Below, one piece after another: positions 14,566 through 53,723 of a stretch of DNA of 64,000 nucleotides. Under the pieces are notes generated by a model, which ran no database searches, was not told the origin of the DNA, and saw nothing but the letters and a program-made list of their open reading frames with translations. Position 1 is the first letter of the stretch. Every line of letters starts with the position of its first letter. Source of the DNA: Candidatus Bathyarchaeota archaeon (GTDB taxonomy: Archaea > Thermoproteota > Bathyarchaeia > Bathyarchaeales > Bathycorpusculaceae); assembly GCA_963707955.1 (NCBI GenBank), contig OY970176.1, positions 2,240,001 through 2,304,000 on the forward strand. The letters are read 5' to 3'. The position numbers were made by a program, and so were the translations under genes.

Positions 14566-15492
14566 TTGTCAAAAGTCAAGAAAACAAAGGAAGACGCGCC
14601 TCGACGTTGTGACTACATCATTACCAACTACAGAAAGGCGCGTCAAAGCATTGACCAATCAAAGCTGAAGTTGAACGACACGTCTAGAGAACTCGATGAA
14701 GTGATCAACAAGTATAGCATGCTGAACAAGTTTTGCGGCCAAGTCTCAGCGATGCCAACCGGTTCTTTCTCGCAATTCCAAAAGGCGAACCTCGAAAGCC
14801 TTCTTGTTTCTGGAGCTGACAACGCGACAATGGCCTTAGGAAGGGCGAGGGAGATCGAGAAGACCATTCCACATTTTTCTGCAGTAGTTTCTTCGGGAAG
14901 CGCACTTGTTCTTGGCATTGCTGAAATCGCAAGAAACATTGCTGAAAGCTCTGAGGACACAAGGAAACTGGTCGCAGGATGGAATCTGCCCACGCCCAGG
15001 GAAAATCAGAATGCGCTCACTTCGAGGGTTCATGAGATTGAGCCACGTCTTGAGGTTAAACTCAACGGAGCTTGGCAAACCTTGTTCGACAGAACCAAAG
15101 TTGATAGGTTTCGTCAATCTTCAAGCTCGATGAGAGAGCTAATCTCTGACACTTTACAGGTTTTGGCTCCAGATTCAGGAATACAAGAGACTTCTTGGTT
15201 TTCCCAAAACGGTCCCAACAGAAAGCCGACTCAAGCAGAGCGTGCCTACTATGCCATTGTTGGAAAGAATCCAGCGGTTGAACAAAAGGATCTGAAGTCA
15301 GCAGCAGACCTAGCCAAGAATATTCGCGAATCATATGAAAAGCTCAACAAATATACCCACGAAAGAACAAGCCATCCAGAGATAAAACCTGAGGATCTCG
15401 AAAGCCAATTGGTCAGCGTTTTCAATGAGACGCAGATCTACCTTCTGGAAATCCTCAGAATGCGAGAGAAGTTTTTCAGAGACCTAATATAG
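14566..15492 (+). CDS. Hypothetical protein with C-terminal pPIWI-associating nuclease-like (HEPN-like) domain
   Basis: R(Q)...SMREL....L..LAPD..I....W.......KPT...R..Y and LNKYTH. Confidence 0.65.
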   Translation: MSKVKKTKEDAPRRCDYIITNYRKARQSIDQSKLKLNDTSRELDEVINKYSMLNKFCGQVSAMPTGSFSQFQKANLESLLVSGADNATMALGRAREIEKTIPHFSAVVSSGSALVLGIAEIARNIAESSEDTRKLVAGWNLPTPRENQNALTSRVHEIEPRLEVKLNGAWQTLFDRTKVDRFRQSSSSMRELISDTLQVLAPDSGIQETSWFSQNGPNRKPTQAERAYYAIVGKNPAVEQKDLKSAADLAKNIRESYEKLNKYTHERTSHPEIKPEDLESQLVSVFNETQIYLLEILRMREKFFRDLI

Positions 15493-18269: not shown

Positions 18270-18399
18270 TTTTGTTTGGGTTTGAGCTGGGATAAAACTT
18301 TACCCTTTTTCTCTCTCCTGCTAACTCTCTCGCTCACTCTCTCTAAAAAAACAAACAAATAAAAAACACACACACGCAGACAACAAACAAAAACACACA
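18270..18399 (+). repeat. Box + G-poor tract element, copy 1
   Basis: GGATAAAACTTTACCC at 18290-18305 followed by CT-rich then CA-rich tract; fused directly to truncated cas1. Confidence 0.85.
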
Positions 18400-19360
18400 G
18401 AAGTCAGAGACAAAAACGGGCAGACTGAACGTTATCCGCATTTTGAGAAGGAAATAGGCGAAGCTGTCCTGAAGAGCGGAAGTTACGTTTCCGTTGACGC
18501 CCTAATTGACCTTGCACTCTGGAACATAGACACCTACATTATGACTAGGAAAAACAGAGTTGTAGCAGTTTTGAAGAACCTTGAAGATGACTCTCACGTT
18601 AAAACTAGGCTCTGTCAATATGAGGCTCTCAGCAACGGTAAAGGAATTGCTATAGCTAAACAGTTTTTAATCTCCAAGATTGAAGGTCAAAACTTCGTTT
18701 TTAAGAAATATGGTCTGAAACGTCTCAATGTTGATGCTAGGCATCAAATCGGTAATATTCAATTTGAAAGTCTAGAATCAGCTAGGAAAAAGCTTGTCTT
18801 AATTGAGAGCCATAATGCTAAGCTGTATTTCAACCAGATTTTCAACTTGTTTCCTGAAAAGATTAGACCTGAAAAGAGGACAGGCTATGCGGCGTAAGAT
18901 GGCTTGAACAACGTCTTTAATTTTGCGTATTATGTTTTGAAGTGCAGAGTTCATAAGACATTGTTGAAAGCTAAGCTTGAACCATACCTAGGATTCCTTC
19001 ACTCTGTTCAAGTTGGAAAGCCTAGTCTAGTATGCGACTTTCAAGAACTTTACCGCTACTTGATAGATGACTACCTGATAGAACGGTGTCAGAAATTGCG
19101 TAAGAAGGATTTTGTGCTTGTTACAGATTTTATGATGCGTCTCAAAATGGGAAAGAGGATTCACCTATGTGAATTTGAAACTAATGATTTAGCTGAAGGT
19201 TTGAATTTGCTTTTTGAACGGCATAGTTGAGATTCCAAGAATCAGGCATGGCAGTAGGCAGACTCTTGACACGTTGATTAATGAAGAGGCTTACTTGTTT
19301 GCAAAGTTTCTGAGACATGAACGGGAAACATGGGCTCCAAGAATAGCGAGCCTAGCCTGA
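18400..19360 (+). pseudogene. cas1: Solo CRISPR-associated endonuclease Cas1 (5'-truncated, TAA at 18895-18897, frameshift near 19222)
   Basis: VRDKNG.TERYP.FE.EIGE..LKSG, R..QY, IE...A..YF, N..FNFAY..L, L.PYLGFLH, SLVCDFQE.YR..IDD; no cas2 or array nearby. Confidence 0.9.
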
Positions 19361-19514: not shown

Positions 19515-20174
19515 TTGGAAAAACTTCAAACAGTAAGGCCTGAACGTACTGAAGAATTCAGGAAAAGATACCATGTGCTTCTTAACATCTCTGACGAGAA
19601 AATCAATGATATACTGAAACTGGTTGATTACGGACGACTTCTGCCTGATATCTGGAAAGATAAGCGAGAGGAGGAATTCAACCGGAAGATAGCTAAGATC
19701 TGTCAATTTGATGACCAAAAAGCAAGTTTGGTCATGTCATCGATAATTGGCATTTTGCGTAATGTGAAGAAAAAAGAGTTTGTTTTGAAAAGAGAATCAG
19801 ACCTGCTGAAATTGAAGTTTAACAAAACTGAGATTGAAAGATACGGAAAATTAGTGAACACATTGAGGAAAAAAGGGGGTCACGATGAAGTCAGAGAAGT
19901 CGATCAATGGCAATCTCTGACTGCGGAAGTCTTGCCATCTTTGGCTTCTATTGAATGCTCGTTTGACATACGGTGCGGAATCAAGAAAGACCAAGTATCG
20001 ACGTATATCCCTATTGTATTGTTAAAACTCAGAGCGACGAATGAAGGAGGGAAATCCTCAGAGTTTGTATTCCAAACTGACATTGGCACCCTAAGACGTA
20101 TAACTCGCGTTTTGACCGAAACATATAGAAACTCCAGTGTACTTAGGAAATATACACTCAAACGTGAGGACTGA
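19515..20174 (+). CDS. COMMD-like protein (helical N-domain plus C-terminal COMM-like domain)
   Basis: LPSLASIECSFDIR...PIVLLKL.......SEFVFQ.....L..I...L follows the COMM-domain pattern; ~220 aa as in COMMDs. Confidence 0.6.
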   Translation: MEKLQTVRPERTEEFRKRYHVLLNISDEKINDILKLVDYGRLLPDIWKDKREEEFNRKIAKICQFDDQKASLVMSSIIGILRNVKKKEFVLKRESDLLKLKFNKTEIERYGKLVNTLRKKGGHDEVREVDQWQSLTAEVLPSLASIECSFDIRCGIKKDQVSTYIPIVLLKLRATNEGGKSSEFVFQTDIGTLRRITRVLTETYRNSSVLRKYTLKRED

Positions 20175-20182
20175 AACTGACA

Positions 20183-20656
20183 ATGCGTCTCAGTCAACGT
20201 GTAGTACTTGAAGAACCGCAACCTGTCGCAGAGCATCAGAGATGTTTTCTAAGTGGAGATAGATACATCATGGATGCAGATCTCTTGGATAATTCCAAGC
20301 GTCGCGCGAGACTAAGACGCGTGCGTGAAGTATGGAAGCCAAATCATTGGTTCCCTGATGAAAGAATATACTTGGTGCATTCAGTCGCTCCAAACTTCTA
20401 TCGACGTGGCGATACGACATGGTCTATTGTTTTAGATGAAGAAAGCGAGACTGACTTAACTGAAACAATTCAAAAGAAGCTGAGAATCAGAAAGACAGAG
20501 GCAGCAGCAATAAAGGATAAACTTTACGAGGAAATTGACCAAATAGCTCAGGCTCGGAACGTTGAACGGTTTTCCTCAAACGAAAAAGACCAGCTAGTAT
20601 TAGCAATAATCAAGACCGCTGACAGTTTGTTGAAGAAGACACTTGATACAAAGTAG
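20183..20656 (+). CDS. Hypothetical protein
   Basis: 157-aa ORF, 8 bp from upstream and 14 bp from downstream gene. Confidence 0.7.
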   Translation: MRLSQRVVLEEPQPVAEHQRCFLSGDRYIMDADLLDNSKRRARLRRVREVWKPNHWFPDERIYLVHSVAPNFYRRGDTTWSIVLDEESETDLTETIQKKLRIRKTEAAAIKDKLYEEIDQIAQARNVERFSSNEKDQLVLAIIKTADSLLKKTLDTK

Positions 20657-20670
20657 TCGGAGGCTGGCAC

Positions 20671-21753
20671 TTGTCATCCTCGGAAGACAAGCAGTCATCC
20701 TTTGCCTATCTTCTCTTGTCATTCCTCGAAGGAAAATTGTTAGAGAAGAATATTGAGATTCCCAAATCTTCTCGTGACATTCTTAATGTAGCAGTGGATG
20801 AGGCTGTCAACCAATATGTCACTATGCATGGCAAAGATATGACGATTGAACCTTTGTCACTTTTTGAGACGGTTTTCATGCTAGGTTTGGAATTCCGCCG
20901 TAAAAATCCTCCAATCATTCTTGTTCGCACCTATCAAGTTGGTTTTGAATCAAAAAAGAAGTCTCCTTATTCAATTGTAGTAGTGCAACCACGTGTTCCT
21001 TCTCAGGATCAGTTTAGAGAAAAGGTTACCAATAATGGAAAACTTTGTATCATTAAAGAAGAAGCGGCTGAAGACATAATGCAGCAACTTTCAGAGATTG
21101 CTGAGAAGCTTGAAGAAAGAGTTGATTTTGTCTGTTTTCCTGAACTATCATTCTTTGATAAGAAAGAAACCTACGATGTTTTGAGCAAAATTGGAAAGGA
21201 AAAAGATTGTTTCATAATAGCAGGATCTTTTCACGATGAAAAGACAGAATCTAATATCTCTGTGATTTTTTCACCCCAAGGAAACTGGTTCAATCAGAGC
21301 AAAATCTTCAGATCCAAAAACGAAGGTATCAATGAGAAACCAATAGAATACTTGAACGAGTTTGATTTCCTTGAAGGAAGATTTTGTGTGTTGATTTGTA
21401 TCGATTCAGAAAGAGAGGATATCAGACAGATACTCAAAGAGAGACTGAAAGACCGCAAGTGCCCTGTGCTAGTCTTCAACCCATCACACACCGAACACCC
21501 AAAAAGGGCGACGGAGCTGCTAGCAAACAATCTCATGGTGCTGATTTCTGCGGCAATAGTTTTCTGTAATACTAACCAGAAAGGGGGTTCAACGGTACTT
21601 GTTCCTTTTGTTGAACTCAAAGATAGAAAATTCCGACTCTTCGAACTACCTCCTTCCGCCAAGACTGAGATTGGAAACGCCCAAGTTGATGTTAACCTCC
21701 TTATGGAAAATAGATTGTCAAAACAAAATGGTGTGGTTTCCATGACGAGATAA
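20671..21753 (+). CDS. Carbon-nitrogen hydrolase (nitrilase-fold) protein with N-terminal extension
   Basis: Catalytic triad motifs FVCFPEL, Q.K, VLICID; IIAGS; F.NT...GGS. Confidence 0.82.
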   Translation: MSSSEDKQSSFAYLLLSFLEGKLLEKNIEIPKSSRDILNVAVDEAVNQYVTMHGKDMTIEPLSLFETVFMLGLEFRRKNPPIILVRTYQVGFESKKKSPYSIVVVQPRVPSQDQFREKVTNNGKLCIIKEEAAEDIMQQLSEIAEKLEERVDFVCFPELSFFDKKETYDVLSKIGKEKDCFIIAGSFHDEKTESNISVIFSPQGNWFNQSKIFRSKNEGINEKPIEYLNEFDFLEGRFCVLICIDSEREDIRQILKERLKDRKCPVLVFNPSHTEHPKRATELLANNLMVLISAAIVFCNTNQKGGSTVLVPFVELKDRKFRLFELPPSAKTEIGNAQVDVNLLMENRLSKQNGVVSMTR

Positions 21754-21811: not shown

Positions 21812-21940
21812 TTATGTGTTTTTCGTTTTATGCGTGTGTGTGTTTTTTATTTGTTTGTTTTTTTAGAGAGAGAGTGAGTGAGAGAGTTAGTAGGAGAGAG
21901 AGAAAAGGACAAAACTTTACCCCCCCACACACACAACAAC
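21812..21940 (-). repeat. Box + G-poor tract element, copy 2 (inverted, near-identical tract to copy 1)
   Basis: Reverse complement of ~21832-21908 matches ~18304-18378 with few differences; box GGACAAAACTTTACCC at 21907-21922. Confidence 0.88.
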
Positions 21941-23411: not shown

Positions 23412-23452
23412 ATGTGGTGGTTGTTGGGGTAAAGTTTTACCCAAACCAAACC
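23412..23452 (+). repeat. Box element, copy 3 (short)
   Basis: tgtggtggttgttg GGGTAAAGTTTTACCC aaaccaaacc; box at 23427-23442. Confidence 0.75.
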
Positions 23453-23689: not shown

Positions 23690-24775
23690 TCATGAATCGG
23701 CAAGTTTCGTCTCAAGCAGTTCCAGTGTCTTGCTTATGCCGAATGAGCCCTTAATGGGGACTATTCGCTTTTCTTTGGAGAGTGCGCCCCTCAGCTTTGC
23801 TTGAGGAACCAATCTTCGGATTGCTTTTGTAGGCGCTGTAGAGATAACAAAAAGCTGGAGAGACCTATTTGCCACCAGAGACTCATTGATTATTGTATTA
23901 ATCTTCTCGTGCCTGAATGCAAAGCCGACGATGATGCAAATATCCGTCTGCGTGAGTTTATTTTTGAATCTGGCAAACATATCGCCGTACGGATATGGGT
24001 TTTCAGTGTTCGGCTTCCTGCCAAAAAGAACAAACTCGTTGTTTCGGTAAAGTATGGTGTTTGGCGGAACTGGAAACTGTACGGTTATCACCTCAATCTT
24101 TTCTGTCTGTTTGTTCCATACCCAGTTCAGGGAACCATGAAGCTTCGTCAGTGTATATTTTTCGCTGGATGTGGGGGTCACCTGTGGCTCCAAAGTATGT
24201 TCTAGGACCGCATACCTCAGAGCATGCCCAGACTGATCGCAATAATCCTCTATCACGTGATCATAGTTGGTCGTGAATATCTCGAATTCAGGTTTGTTCG
24301 CCATATACGTTTTCATCAAGGAAAAGAAGCGACCGTAATAGTCTTTGATATCATCGAAAAACCCTTGTTTTCGCTGATAATTTGAGAAAGTAGCGGCAGT
24401 TATTTTTTCTTCAAGAGCTCTTGCTAGTCTAACTATCTTATGCCATTCAATTGTACCTTGAAGAGGGTAAGGATGACTATCTTTTCCGAAATCTACAGAC
24501 TCTTTGTACCGTTCAAAGAAATTGTGCATGGAAGAGGCTGTCGAGAGCCGATCTATCTCAAACAGCGAATCGAGAATCTCAACAATATGTTCAATGTCTC
24601 TCACACCGTGCAATTGGCGGAGGGACGACAAGAAACTTCTCTCTTCATCCTTCAAAGTTTTTGAGAAATTTTCCATAAAAGCCTTCGTAGCAGGACAACC
24701 AAACTTTGCAGAAACCCCTGCTCCCAAGAATATTATGATGCTTTTCGAGTGTCCATTATCGACCCTAAGTGACAT
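23690..24775 (-). CDS. SIR2-like (SIR2_2) NAD-dependent protein
   Basis: FLGAGVS...G.P, IFTTNYD, KLHGSLNW, IVGF.FR...IN. Confidence 0.9.
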   Translation of the reverse strand: MSLRVDNGHSKSIIIFLGAGVSAKFGCPATKAFMENFSKTLKDEERSFLSSLRQLHGVRDIEHIVEILDSLFEIDRLSTASSMHNFFERYKESVDFGKDSHPYPLQGTIEWHKIVRLARALEEKITAATFSNYQRKQGFFDDIKDYYGRFFSLMKTYMANKPEFEIFTTNYDHVIEDYCDQSGHALRYAVLEHTLEPQVTPTSSEKYTLTKLHGSLNWVWNKQTEKIEVITVQFPVPPNTILYRNNEFVLFGRKPNTENPYPYGDMFARFKNKLTQTDICIIVGFAFRHEKINTIINESLVANRSLQLFVISTAPTKAIRRLVPQAKLRGALSKEKRIVPIKGSFGISKTLELLETKLADS

Positions 24776-24848: not shown

Positions 24849-26489
24849 TCAGCTCTCCTGAAAGAAGAAAAGATTATCATTCCGAATAGAATCTCTCAAT
24901 TTAACCAGCAGATTAAAGTGCTCGTGAAGCTTCGTTTCTTCTGCTTCTTTTTCTACTGTTTCTATATCTTTTTTCATTGGGAATCCTTCCATTCCTATAT
25001 CCACAGGATATTCTTTCCTTCGGAATTTTGCTATTTTTTGAACACAAATATTGAAGAATCTGATTTCCGACAATAAACGCATGGCAAGATCGAGCACTTT
25101 GTTGTCATAGACTGACTTTATCCAACCCTCAGTTTCGTCTGATTTCGACAATAGTCTCAATTCAATGAAACCAGACGGAGATGACGCAAACTGAAAATGT
25201 CTGATTTCATTTATCTTGGCACTTGTAATGAATAATTCTTTGGTAACGTCGTTGAAAAACAGTCGAAAATCGTGGCAAGGGAAAAACAGTTTATCCCTGC
25301 TCAGTGATGCGACTAAACCCAGTTTGATTCTTTTAGGTATTGACTTTCCGTAATACTCACTTTCAAACACTGAGTTGTTCTGATACAATTTCCTGAAATG
25401 GGAAGGCAGAAACAAAGATTTTTCTAATTCCACACATTTCTTGAAAAGCTTTCTCAAGCTTTTTTCAGCTTTCTGCAGATCTATTTCATCGAAATTATCA
25501 AGAGGAAATGTTATACTGAAATCAAAGTTCTTTGGCAATTTGATTCTTGTCAAGCTAGGGGCCTTTCCGCAAATCTGTTTTAGGGTAGAAAACTCGGATA
25601 TGTTCTTCGTTTTGTATTCGCCTTGCAGCATGAAATCGTCTAACCTGAATTTCTCGATTTTTGGTATGAACGAAAAAACGCCCGAGCTACCTGAGGGTCG
25701 ACCCCAATCTTGCAGTTCATCGGCCAAAATGAGGACAGACAATATTTTCTCTTTTGATGCTTTGATTTTCCTTGTGCCGCGGGAGCTATGAAAAGCAATG
25801 GCTCTGATTACGTCCTCATATTTCTTAATTAGATTCGCATCTTGTTTTAGATAAGATGTGAACTCTAATGCACTCAATATGCCATGGTCAAATTCCTTAG
25901 TTTTGTATTCCTGCAGGATCTCTGGCGGCAAAGATGAGAATTTCTCGATATCAAATCGCAATTTCTTTTCCGCATTCAATAATGCTTCCGAAGCTATATT
26001 GTAACAGTCTTTTATCGCATTTATAGAGAATCGGATGCTCTGGTCTATGTCAGCCAAAGGATATGCGACATCATGGAAAAGGGAAGCCAGGAGCAACTTA
26101 TCCAGATCTTGCGGAGACAAATTGAAAGGGGATTTTTGGCCAATAGCTCTGCCCAATAATGCAACGCGTATCGTATGATTTAGATGATCACGGTAAAATT
26201 TCCTTGCTAACCCTCGAGTTGATATTGTTATTTGCTCCAAACTGGTTAACGCATTACCTAATCGTTTCGACCTCATTCTTCCTTTCGAACTGCAGTCTGC
26301 ACCTAAGATCTTGAGAATCAAATTACTCATTAAGGAGGCTGCTTTCGTTTTCTGCATCTCATAATCAGTTATTTCATTCCAATCTTCTATTTCAGAGCAG
26401 ATGTCTTGGGGCCATTTCCCTAGCTCTATTATCTTTTTGTCGAAAAGCAAACTGACTACGAACGGGTTTTGCTTCGATATGTCTTCCAT
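24849..26489 (-). CDS. HD-domain metal-dependent phosphohydrolase with long C-terminal extension
   Basis: RDH..HT.RV, FHDVAYP, DHG.LSA, AIAFH, LADELQDWGR. Confidence 0.85.
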   Translation of the reverse strand: MEDISKQNPFVVSLLFDKKIIELGKWPQDICSEIEDWNEITDYEMQKTKAASLMSNLILKILGADCSSKGRMRSKRLGNALTSLEQITISTRGLARKFYRDHLNHTIRVALLGRAIGQKSPFNLSPQDLDKLLLASLFHDVAYPLADIDQSIRFSINAIKDCYNIASEALLNAEKKLRFDIEKFSSLPPEILQEYKTKEFDHGILSALEFTSYLKQDANLIKKYEDVIRAIAFHSSRGTRKIKASKEKILSVLILADELQDWGRPSGSSGVFSFIPKIEKFRLDDFMLQGEYKTKNISEFSTLKQICGKAPSLTRIKLPKNFDFSITFPLDNFDEIDLQKAEKSLRKLFKKCVELEKSLFLPSHFRKLYQNNSVFESEYYGKSIPKRIKLGLVASLSRDKLFFPCHDFRLFFNDVTKELFITSAKINEIRHFQFASSPSGFIELRLLSKSDETEGWIKSVYDNKVLDLAMRLLSEIRFFNICVQKIAKFRRKEYPVDIGMEGFPMKKDIETVEKEAEETKLHEHFNLLVKLRDSIRNDNLFFFQES

Positions 26490-45737: not shown

Positions 45738-48700
45738 TTGTCTAGGAAGACTGTTTCTGCAATAATGCTATTTTTGTTGGTGATAAGCACATTAACATTG
45801 GCATTTAAGATTCAATCAGTCAAAGCAGACGATGGAACTGTCTACGTTAATGCTGACGGAAGCATAAGCCCGATCAGCGGCAATGTTGTCACAAATGTCA
45901 CTTCGTTCGAGGCCATTAGATGGCAGGAAAAAACGTTCTTCGCTGCTGGAAGGTACTGGCTTTTTTATGTTGACGGAGGTTACCCCACAGAGAGCTCCTT
46001 GCCGAGCTCCACGATGTATTATACGACAAGCACGGATGGAGTTTCTTGGACCCCTCCGACCGCACTTGCATCTGGTCTCAGTGAAAACTCTGGAGAAAAC
46101 GTACAGGCATTTCTAAGCAATAGTGGATATCTCCAAGTTTTTTATAGGATTAATAATGAGCTTTTCTACCGCATGGGGAGTCCCAACTCAGACGGTTCAA
46201 TAACGTGGGCGACACCTAGCTGGCAACTCGTCTTCAATGCTAATGCAGCAGAAGGAGAAGCAAGCGGTACGTGTGACTTTTTCGCAATAGTCGACTCTAA
46301 CAATTATCCTTGGGTTTCTTGGGGGTACGTCCAAGAGCCGATACAGTTGCTCAATCCTTCAGACACTAAAATGTACGTTTGGAAAGACGCGTTTAACAAT
46401 GGCACGTGGCAGACTGCCTCAGGCTTTCCCTATAACGTAGGCACTGGCAACTATACAAACGACTTGATGATTCCGCTTTCGAACGGTCAAAATTACGTAA
46501 TGTACTTTCTTGATAATCCCCCCTTAAGCGGTCAGATCTATGGTGAACTGTGGAACGGCACTGCGTGGGGGCCTCAGGAAACATGCACAACCAGTCAGGT
46601 GAATGAGCAATACGTTTGGGGACAGGAATCCTGGGACAGAACTGCAGTTGCGGATTCAAACGATAACATATACCTGGCTTTTTTGTCCACAACACTGAAC
46701 TTGGTTTTTGTCGAGCGCACGATGAGCGGTGGATGGACTAGCGAAACAATCGTGCAAGGTGGCTGTGGCATTTATTCGTCTCCTTCATTCAACTTATACG
46801 ACGACAACCTGCGACTGTTTTGGATTAACAGTTCCACCTCAATATGCTACAAGAAATACGTTGGCGGCGTATGGGATACTGACCCGACTTTGATAGTGAA
46901 TGAAACAAACTCTCAGATTGCAGTCGGCACCTCCGTCGACGGCACGGATGATGGACGTTTAAACGCTTTCACAATGTCTCTTGATGGTAGCATTGGCTTG
47001 TTGTGGGTAAACAATCAAACAGTGACGAACACTGGTCAAATAATGTTCGGGCTTCAACCGCAGACAGCACTGACATTCTCAAACATCGGTTTAAGCAGCA
47101 CAGTAGCAAATTCGACTTGCACGTTCAGCTGTTGTTGGACCGACACGCAAGGACTTGGTGCGTTCATTTTCTCGACAAACAATACCGGCAACTGGCAGAA
47201 CGACTCCACGGTGAGTCTCAGTGGCACTGTCGCGTGGACAAACGTGACGAAGACTTTGAACCCCATAGTGGGCACGGTCGTCGGTTACGAATGGTTCGCA
47301 AACGACACGAATGGCAACTGGGCATCGACAGGAATTCAAACATTAACAACACACGCGCCCGCTGGTTATATCTCGACCGAACCCATTTACATACAGGCCG
47401 ACGGAAGCATACAACCGTCAACAGCGCCGATTTCCAGCGTTGACAACGTGACCTACACGTTAACAAACGATATCACGGCAAACGTCACAGCCAGTTCCAG
47501 CGCAATCATCATACAAAGAGACAACATCACAATAGACGGAGCAGGCCACACGCTGCAAGACTCAGGAGCTTCAGACTCCGAAGGAATAGATTTGACAGGA
47601 AGAAGCAACGTAACAATCAAAAACATGCAAATCACAGCATTCTATTATGGCATCGATCTCAATTCTTCTTCTAACAACAGCGTGAGCGGAAACAACATAA
47701 CAAGCAACAGCTGGGCTGGCATCTGGCTCGATTCTTCTTCTGATAATAATAGCGTGAGCGGAAACTCGTTTGTTAATTGCGGCTTACTTGTGTTTGATTC
47801 CTATGGGAATGTGGTGACTGATAACTTGGTGAACGGTAAACCCTTGGTCTATCTTGAAGATGTGTCAGACTATGCGGTTGGGGACGCTGGGCAAGTCATA
47901 CTCGTCAACTGTAACAACGTAACCGTGGAAAACCTCAACCTATACAACACTAACACAGGCGTTGAACTATGGGAAACAAACAACACCACAATCTCAGATA
48001 ACGACATAACAGCAAACACCAACGACGGTATCTCGTTCTATTCTTCTGCTAATAATAACGTGAGCGGAAACAACGTAACAAACGACGGTGCTGGCGTCGA
48101 TTTCGATTCTTCTTCTGCTAATAATAGTGTGAGCGGAAACAACATAACAAACGACGGCTATGGCATCATGCTCTTTTCTTCTGCTAATAATAGCGTGAGC
48201 GGAAACAACATAACGAACAACGGCTATGGCATCATGCTCTTTTCTTCTGATAATGATAATAGCGTGAGCGGAAACAACATAACGAACAACAGCTGGGCTG
48301 GCATCTATCTCCTTTCTTCTGCTAATAATAGTGTGAGCGGAAACAACATAACGAACAACGGCTATGGCATGATGCTCTTTTCTTCTGCTAATAATGGCGT
48401 GAGCGGAAACAACATAACAAGGAACAGCTGGGCTGGCGTCTATATCGATTATTCTGATAATAATAGTGTGAGCGGAAACAACATAACAAACAACAGGGTT
48501 GGCATTGAGATAGATTCTTCCTCTAAGAATACAGTCTACCATAACAACTTCATAAACAACACCGGCCAAGTTTATTCTTCTGGCTCGACTAGTGTTTGGG
48601 ATGTTGGCTATCCCATTTGTGGAAACTACTGGAGCGACTACAACGGCACAGACTTGTACAGCGGGCAATATCAGAATGTGACTGGAAGCGACGGCATAGG

Positions 48701-53583: not shown

Positions 53584-53723
53584 TTGGGGTAAAGTTTTAT
53601 CTTTCTCTCTCTCAATTTCTTACGCACACGACGACGCTCTAATTCTAACGCGCTAACTCTCCCCTACTCACTCACTCTCTCTACACACACGCACACACAC
53701 AGAGACAGACAAAGCACGCGCTA
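53581..53723 (+). repeat. Box + G-poor tract element, copy 8
   Basis: GGGTAAAGTTTTATCT 53587-53602; CT then CA tract; ends GCACGCGCTA on the stop of the second NosD gene. Confidence 0.85.

Follow-up and report, generated by a model that had tools for sequence, protein, structure and literature searches.

A predicted COMMD-like protein in a conserved three-gene unit with a putative nitrilase-superfamily enzyme from a Bathyarchaeota genome

Introduction

Proteins related to the COMMD family of eukaryotes have been described from bacteria and archaea. Those reported by Liu et al. (Nat Commun 2026, PMC13392464) assemble into rings of eight or ten identical subunits (PDB 9q6a and 9q6c), and that report states that the prokaryotic members elude sequence-based methods and that their function is unclear. 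The gene contexts it describes are, for Myxococcota, clusters resembling the type VI secretion system (T6SS) and, for Chlamydia and Haloarchaea, genes related to DNA, and the search it presents for prokaryotic versions of CCDC22, CCDC93, VPS26C and VPS35L found none. Homologues from Asgard archaea are interpreted, in PMC12962969, as a sign of eukaryote-like compartmentalization. COMMD-like proteins of prokaryotes are thus already in print, in two papers of 2026 (PMC13392464, PMC12962969), and the protein described here, A, is a new and divergent member. It is encoded in a stretch of 64,000 nucleotides (positions 2,240,001 to 2,304,000 of contig OY970176.1, assembly GCA_963707955.1, Candidatus Bathyarchaeota archaeon), referred to throughout as the window, by the first of three closely spaced genes, A, B and C, the last of which encodes a putative enzyme of the nitrilase superfamily.

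Nitrilase domains are found in defence systems that include a reverse transcriptase (RT). As assumed in an earlier note on the window made from its letters alone (the original prediction), they can serve as the effector, and this has been proven for DRT1 (PMC13275509). According to that report, the DRT1 nitrilase requires a defined oligomeric assembly for its activity and is kept quiescent in filaments until it is released by phage factors, and its substrate is given as unknown. The nitrilases associated with class 3 RTs form a clade of their own (PMC9226505). A third type of element relevant to this locus is the casposon, for which Krupovic et al. 2014 (PMC4046053) give terminal inverted repeats (TIRs) of 25–602 nt, a target-site duplication (TSD) with a median length of 15 nt and a PolB gene that is always present.

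Results

A conserved, tightly packed three-gene unit

All three genes lie on the + strand. Gene A (19515..20174) starts with TTG and encodes a COMMD-like protein of 219 aa, with a predicted HN domain at approximately 9–137 and a predicted COMM domain at approximately 139–218. Gene B (20183..20656) encodes 157 aa that match no known family, and gene C (20671..21753), which also starts with TTG, encodes 360 aa comprising an N-terminal extension (approximately 1–94) and a predicted nitrilase-superfamily domain (approximately 95–360). The open reading frames (ORFs) are separated by only 8 bp (A/B) and 14 bp (B/C), and these coordinates reproduce exactly the three ORFs and gaps of the original prediction. 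The archaeal origin assumed there is also borne out, as the source genome, a single contig of 2.35 Mb, includes a small-subunit ribosomal RNA gene that scores 1474 bits with the archaeal Rfam model, above all other models of its clan.

When metagenomes were scanned with the C family, 171 pattern matches led to five confirmed loci. Three of these, L001, L002 and L003, are close relatives, with identities of 65, 51 and 38 % to the C of the window along its full length. The order A-B-C and the tight spacing are retained in L001 and L002, and L003 includes B-C on a contig that stops inside B, placing A beyond reach. Hence, A-B-C was present in both of the loci that extend far enough upstream and B-C in all three, and the co-occurrence elsewhere that the original prediction had proposed as a check was found, with flanking genes that vary from locus to locus. 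This count takes in L001–L003. The remaining two loci, L004 and L005, were considered as relatives of the cassette and set aside, as they share 25–29 % identity over part of C only and represent other nitrilases.

Gene A opens this conserved unit of three tightly packed genes. The weak start codon TTG is also conserved across loci. It opens A and C in both the window (19515 and 20671) and L001 (6854 and 8001), and C in L002 (1167).

Protein A

Alone, A matched the Pfam COMM_domain profile (PF07258) with E 0.035 and 14.7 bits, under the cut-off of 22.4 bits, over residues 142–196 (profile positions 4–57 of 64), and a word-index search returned a single relative, 48 % identical. When 1.84 billion representative proteins were searched by HMMER using a profile made from these two sequences, 20 were retrieved at E ≤1e-3, 12 of them at E ≤1e-10, and no fused forms of A were among these 20, which range in length from 88 to 230 aa. 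Eighteen full-length members, some from two metagenome loci and the others from the searches, were combined in an alignment designated A4. Within this set, COMM_domain was matched by 11 of the 18 at E ≤1 (best E 4.8e-6) and the Pfam COMM_HN profile by one (E 0.011). The A4 profile also matched human COMMD2 (8f2r_B) in register, with residues 139–209 aligned to 120–188 (E 0.012). Three PDB matches of the AlkD2 type (E of approximately 1e-3) that outscored COMMD2 were confined to the helical stretch 50–117 and were rejected as helical-repeat noise. In the COMMD2 alignment, C148 of A lies opposite the conserved Trp of the motif EWRLDV, so that the replacement of Trp by Cys noted previously is correct; one family member, P0025, has Trp at this position.

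The AlphaFold2 (AF2) model of A, built on A4, has a mean pLDDT of 86.9. It includes eight helices within residues 9–137, followed by strands at 142–157, 160–175 and 181–188 and a C-terminal helix at 190–218. In the model, A thus has both the three-stranded antiparallel sheet and subsequent long helix of a COMM domain and, in the same chain, an N-terminal HN domain made up entirely of helices, with 185–200 residues aligned at Z 8.1–10.0 to full-length proteins. A Foldseek search of the PDB with this model produced 18 matches at E ≤1e-3, the best being COMMD2 (E 6e-8). The 11 listed down to E 1.3e-5 were all human COMMD proteins or the bacterial 9q6a/9q6c, over 198–220 columns, and chains consisting of the COMM domain only came next, with a TM score by target of 0.63–0.80. 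VIA-align ranked the chain 9q6a_A from the bacterial COMMD-like octamer first (Z 10.0, 197 residues), followed by human COMMD2, 8f2r_B (Z 8.8, 194 residues), 9q6c_A (Z 8.2, 200 residues), 8p0w_J (Z 8.1, 185 residues), the COMM domain of COMMD9, 6bp6_A (Z 8.0, 77 residues at 3.0 Å), and 8esd_N (Z 7.8, 169 residues). The first unrelated fold, Pur-alpha, was reached at Z 5.2 over 65 residues.

The full-length superpositions have a high root mean square deviation (rmsd) of 8–13 Å. As the COMM domain by itself superposes at 3.0 Å, this is in keeping with two domains that each match well but are hinged at a different angle in the model of the monomer. The modelled topology, Foldseek, VIA, the Pfam matches of 11 of the 18 family members and the COMMD2 profile match all agree with the COMM pattern, following an N-terminal domain of helices, that the original prediction had read from A, and the top structural matches, on which that prediction had staked itself, are all COMMD or COMMD-like proteins. 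Judged on the model, A is a true, full-length, if divergent, relative of the eukaryotic COMMD proteins. By analogy with its solved bacterial relatives, it probably forms a homo-oligomeric ring.

Protein C

Protein C has no match in Pfam at E ≤0.1. The only sequence matches to a defence library were to the PADLOC models RTasNitrilase (E 3.8e-7, residues 129–317) and Drt1a (E 1.2e-6), and NCBIfam added a weak match to Lnt (E 1.2e-4). A word-index search with C returned 13 proteins, including C itself. By sequence, C appears as a divergent branch of the nitrilase fold and an atypical family member.

The AF2 model of C (pLDDT 74.9, pTM 0.80, with low confidence at 274–330) produced 213 Foldseek matches at E ≤1e-3, and all of those among the matches listed belong to the nitrilase superfamily. 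VIA superposed model residues 94–360 on 3p8k_A with Z 20.0 (230 residues at 3.0 Å), and 213 chains had Z ≥8. The top structural matches were Nit2, formamidase and aliphatic amidases. Both methods, thus, place in the model the four-layer alpha-beta-beta-alpha fold of the nitrilase superfamily, in accord with the fold proposed originally. The proposed Glu-Lys-Cys triad also appears to be intact, as the 12 aligned sequences all have E158, K211 and C243. In alignments made with the C profile, K211 falls opposite the Lys in the RKIH motif of mouse Nit2, and C243 opposite the Cys in ICYD / ICFD of yeast Nit3 and PH0642, motifs which we take to hold the catalytic residues of these three proteins. Two further invariant residues, E218 and E226, are candidates for the second Glu.

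Residues 1–94 are modelled as an extra domain of three helices and one strand. No structural match was found for this N-terminal domain, and searches with the first 98 residues gave only sub-threshold Atlas leads. Taken together, the model and the alignment identify C as a nitrilase-superfamily (C-N hydrolase) enzyme that has a predicted Glu-Lys-Cys centre and, at its N terminus, an additional domain of helices.

In the phylum, the C profile has its next closest relatives in nitrilase domains that end open frames of 1,422 and 1,572 aa. The first of these, cut out as an archaeal ORF of 1,413 aa (L041:1679-5920, from G276:C31), has a C-terminal nitrilase, which matched CARF-nitrilase (E 2.1e-14) and RTasNitrilase (E 1.8e-11) in PADLOC as well as Pfam CN_hydrolase, and its first approximately 1,000 residues have no Pfam match. 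C is thus grouped, on sequence, with the nitrilases that appear to be wired into conflict-type multidomain proteins.

Another arrangement was seen in L005, one of the loci set aside above. A metagenome ORF of 512 aa (L005:93-1631) has an apparent metallophosphoesterase-like N-terminal half, with HHP and GHSH motifs read by eye, fused to a nitrilase-like C-terminal half, and is followed by an ORF of 359 aa. The fusion recalls the choice between a nitrilase and a phosphohydrolase among class 3 UG RTs.

Protein B

The N-terminal half of B is variable, and only the last 65 or so residues, which are helical, are conserved in the four loci. The sole match in the family libraries is a weak, Rho_N-like one at residues 111–145 (Pfam, E 0.0012, under the cut-off), and the original description of B as an unknown protein stands. 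No family was found for B in PADLOC, NCBIfam or PHROGs, the Atlas gave no usable match, and a word-index search returned no homologue other than B itself. In the protein collection, an alternative gene call begins at residue 30 (P0036, 128 aa); the longer ORF, beginning directly after A, is retained in L001 and L002.

Rarity of the unit

A profile of the A family was found in only one of 61 genomes from the same genus, family and order, and that one is the source of the window; none of the 10 genomes of the genus and none of the 36 of the family had it. Of the 401 genomes searched across the phylum, 12 gave a match at E ≤0.01, counting the window's own, and the others were weak (best E 1.5e-5). 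Two of these weak matches, L008:1266-1883 (- strand) and L017:1276-1902 (+ strand) / L034:9444-10070, were scored by hhalign at 85.5 % and 70.7 %, respectively, over 174–183 columns, and probably represent other COMMD-like subfamilies of the phylum. The genes in L008 and L017 have orphan genes next to them, along with insertion sequence transposases (rve-type as read from the sequence, IS1595 by Pfam). A search for the C family in a collection of species-representative genomes gave 69 pattern matches, none of them confirmed, and a profile search of genome contigs for distant relatives of A gave 73, again with none confirmed. The A-B-C unit is, thus, rare, patchy in distribution and accessory.

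The cassette is the cargo of an inserted unit

The three genes are enclosed in a structure that was not part of the earlier note. A TIR at 18306..18397 is matched by a second at 21815..21906, which on the + strand is T-rich directly after gene C. The two agree over 90 nt at 77 % and over 66 nt at 88 %, and an alignment of 71 columns gives 94.4 % identity. The genome has no other copies of them. Immediately outside the TIRs lie direct repeats, GGATAAAACTTTACCC at 18290..18305 and GGACAAAACTTTACCC at 21907..21922, both on the + strand and identical at 15 of 16 positions, that constitute a candidate TSD. An inverted reading of these end repeats agreed at only 12 of 17 positions, so that reading them as direct repeats is preferable.

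The genome has 16 copies of the core of this repeat, AAAACTTTACCC, including those at both ends of the element; 11 are on the + and five on the - strand. Two further copies are in the window (about 23427-23438 and about 53587-53598, both on the - strand) and 12 more are elsewhere in the genome. The motif is usually flanked by G-rich sequence on the left, TTTGGGTTTGGG, and by C/A-rich sequence on the right, CCAAACCC. At the ends of the element, the left copy retains the left flank only and the right copy the right flank only, which is the expected residue of insertion into one such site with a target duplication of 16 bp. The possibility that the 16-copy motif forms a hairpin was also considered and rejected, as its folding was no better than that of shuffled sequences (z -1.07, 0.31 and 1.37).

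Between the left TIR and gene A is a cas1 pseudogene (18379..19360, + strand) that lacks a start codon and is interrupted twice, by an in-frame TAA (18898-18900) and by a frameshift (near 19228). It matched Pfam Cas_Cas1 over profile positions 11–270, with one TAA, at E 3.1e-36, and its fragments at E 4.8e-11 and 2.7e-15, and reading in three frames revealed a 5' truncation at the left repeat. A paralogous remnant (G000:862597) has Tyr where the window copy has the stop. In total, the genome includes four Cas1 remnants and no intact Cas1; the other three (G000:C1:862528-862974, 227778-228074 and 2026633-2026785) are all partial, and one is close in sequence to the window copy. In the contigs from the DNA runs, depth is doubled at 19251-19342, where a second contig covers the same 92 bases with four differences, and this is probably the 3' end of a paralogous Cas1 from elsewhere.

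A simple k-mer scan of the genome detected no CRISPR array; the sole true array-like match was a tandem repeat at 47681-48469, with a spacing of approximately 50–100 nt, within an ORF of 1,132 aa for a NosD / beta-helix protein. Three PolB genes are present in the genome, at 0.54, 0.83 and 1.17 Mb, and the element is at 2.258–2.262 Mb. Around the cassettes in L001 and L002, neither long inverted repeats nor Cas1 were found. The contigs of four DNA runs, all of one study, break at the repeats and showed no population variant without the element.

The cassette and the decayed Cas1 gene are, hence, the cargo of a 3.6 kb inserted unit bounded by TIRs and a TSD. As TIRs and a TSD are combined with a dead Cas1 and no PolB, the sequence fits a decayed or non-autonomous casposon-like unit and not a casposon. 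The integrase gene is dead but its cargo has stayed intact, which suggests that A, B and C have been retained for the benefit of the host.

Surroundings of the element

The element lies in a region (approximately 12.5–30.5 kb of the window) in which Pfam and PADLOC detected genes for NYN/OST-HTH, PDC-M14B-like, DUF559, HD, QueC-like and HNH proteins. A gene at 14566-15492 resembles pPIWI-associated nucleases (Pfam E 3.7e-20), and no Argonaute was found among the nearby ORFs scanned. There is also a DrmC-like PLD gene (PADLOC E 3.9e-14), and a SIR2 gene (23690-24775, - strand; PADLOC Aga_SIR2, E 8.2e-23) is adjoined by a gene for an HD protein of 546 aa (24849-26489, - strand). The GC content is 0.395–0.42 at 18–28 kb and 0.44–0.51 around it. 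These matches, together with the low GC content, agree with the defence-like surroundings described for the window before.

Discussion

A possible conflict system

The pairing of A with a nitrilase raises the question of what the unit does. We propose that A-B-C may be a conflict system, directed against viruses or other mobile elements, in which C would be the effector, as the nitrilase is in DRT1. A ring of A would stand in for the RT and DNA adduct of DRT1 and would hold or release nitrilase subunits, either directly or via B, so that when an invader is sensed the enzyme would be switched from a quiescent to an active assembly. With its variable N-terminal half and conserved C-terminal half, B would be the best candidate for an adaptor or sensor, and the mode of defence would probably be abortive infection. 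The proposal was made because the DRT1 nitrilase depends on its oligomeric state, the class 3 RT nitrilases form a clade and the prokaryotic COMMD-like proteins form rings. The linkage of the three genes, the accessory and mobile character of the unit and its defence-type neighbours also speak for it. By this analogy, control of the assembly state of C by a ring of A, with B as adaptor or sensor, in a unit acting in defence and probably through abortive infection, is put forward tentatively, as a reading with slightly less than an even chance of being correct.

Several findings weigh against it. C has no Pfam match at E ≤0.1, CN_hydrolase (PF00795) included, and neither A nor B matched anything in PADLOC or PHROGs. 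The neighbours in L001 are Mre11-like, PLP-enzyme, NUDIX, HerA and NurA genes, which are of the housekeeping and not the defence type, and the loci inspected outside the window number three, every one on a short metagenome contig. No copy was confirmed in viral contigs searched with the profiles of the C and A families, and tblastn searches of plasmids with A and C found no match. Complexes between COMMD-like proteins and the products of neighbouring genes have been sought by structure prediction, and PMC13392464 records that none were found. Finally, a nitrilase is absent within ±1.5 kb of the COMMD-like genes in L008 and L017 and within approximately 10 kb for L034. As no nitrilase accompanies these distant COMMD-like genes, the pairing is specific to the A subfamily.

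Other explanations

The unit could instead serve the element as a selfish module, for its maintenance or for counter-defence, with the nitrilase either a toxin restrained by A and/or B, as in addiction, or acting against the defences of the host. The location of the cassette inside a TIR/TSD-bounded unit beside a Cas1 remnant and its patchy distribution would both be expected of such a module, and the weak TTG starts of A and C in the window and L001 would be compatible with tight control of harmful products. However, the element is dead, with a broken Cas1 and no second copy of the TIRs in the genome, yet its three cargo genes are intact, and the cassettes in L001 and L002 have neither long inverted repeats nor Cas1. 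An addiction module and an abortive-infection system are also hard to separate by sequence. Overall, we consider a selfish module rather unlikely.

An accessory function in metabolism or protein modification was given about the same weight and likewise seems doubtful. C would then work as an amidase or acyltransferase, with either a small molecule or a protein (possibly B) as its target, and the ring would provide a platform for assembly and play no part in conflict. The majority of nitrilase-superfamily enzymes are metabolic, the top structural matches of C (Nit2, formamidase and aliphatic amidases) and its weak Lnt match (E 1.2e-4) point in the same direction, and the L001 neighbourhood is of the housekeeping type. 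Set against this, the cassette was present in none of the 60 relatives searched, there is no conserved metabolic partner gene around it, and in the window it is carried by a mobile unit within a low-GC defence island. The sequence likeness of C is, moreover, to models of RT-associated nitrilases and not to Pfam CN_hydrolase.

A more basic objection is that the likeness of A to COMM proteins could reflect a shared small fold only, as found in Pur-alpha/Whirly and the chlamydial CT584/Cpn0803, and that A is not a relative of COMMD proteins at all. The A of the window is by itself under the Pfam cut-off, its full-length rmsd values are high (8–13 Å), and Pur-alpha (Z 5.2) and Cpn0803 (Z 3.6) are also among the structural matches, but both domains of A align over 185–200 residues at Z 8.1–10.0, well over the value for Pur-alpha, and the sequence profiles concur in register. 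This makes a shared fold alone very improbable. Least credible is that A, B and C are neighbours by chance with no functional link, for which the small number of loci, and nothing further, could be cited, as their order and spacing are retained despite C identities of 38–65 % and differing flanks.

Implications

A COMMD-like subfamily locked into an operon with an enzyme would provide a first testable clue to the function of COMMD-like proteins in prokaryotes, and the pairing with a nitrilase points to biological conflict instead of trafficking. An operon of this kind in a mobile, defence-island setting was not found in print, in a search that covered few of the supplements of PMC13392464. If the proposed defence role of A-B-C is correct, the cassette would be an RT-free nitrilase-effector system and a simpler handle on what defence nitrilases hydrolyse, a question raised in the DRT1 report (PMC13275509). 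The T6SS-like clusters that house myxobacterial COMMD-like genes, as described in PMC13392464, are likewise a conflict setting. More speculatively, and in our view with a low probability of being right, prokaryotic COMMD-like rings may be scaffolds of conflict systems, the ring here gating, with or via B, an oligomerization-dependent activation of the nitrilase in which no RT is involved. If this were true, then, together with the myxobacterial T6SS link, the COMMD ring of Commander would have been recruited from an immune or conflict scaffold, contrary to the view of an ancient trafficking machine, and a casposon-derived element would be the vehicle for spreading such a cassette.

Comparison with known systems

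The element shares with casposons a Cas1-family gene, TIRs of approximately 90 nt and a TSD of 16 bp. It differs in having no PolB, in its length of only 3.6 kb, and in a Cas1 gene that is dead and 5'-truncated at the repeat.

With the eukaryotic COMMD1–10 of the Commander and CCC complexes (8f2r, 8p0w, 8esd and 6bp6), A has in common the predicted folds of both domains (COMMD2 Foldseek E 6e-8; VIA Z 8.8, 8.1 and 8.0). However, there is one gene here and not ten paralogues, the conserved Trp is Cys in A, and the partners are an enzyme and a small orphan protein. COMMD-like proteins from prokaryotes resemble A in build, as they share the HN and COMM domains and a length of approximately 210–220 aa, the octamer is the best structural match (Z 10.0), and here, as in the published cases, there is a single copy per genome. 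Nonetheless, A is only 13–15 % identical to them and is encoded in a conserved operon with a nitrilase, whereas the words nitrilase, defence, defense and phage do not occur in the main text of PMC13392464.

DRT1 and the class 3 UG-Abi systems are the closest counterparts of the enzyme. The nitrilase domain of C is related to theirs by sequence (RTasNitrilase E 3.8e-7; Drt1a E 1.2e-6), and both are in defence-island settings. In DRT1 the nitrilase is fused to an RT, whereas Pfam and PADLOC scans of 37 ORFs in about 4.4–49 kb of the window gave no RT match, and C is a separate protein of 360 aa with a helical extension of its own and with the COMMD-like A and B as its companions. Control of the effector through its state of assembly may, nevertheless, be a logic that the two plausibly share.

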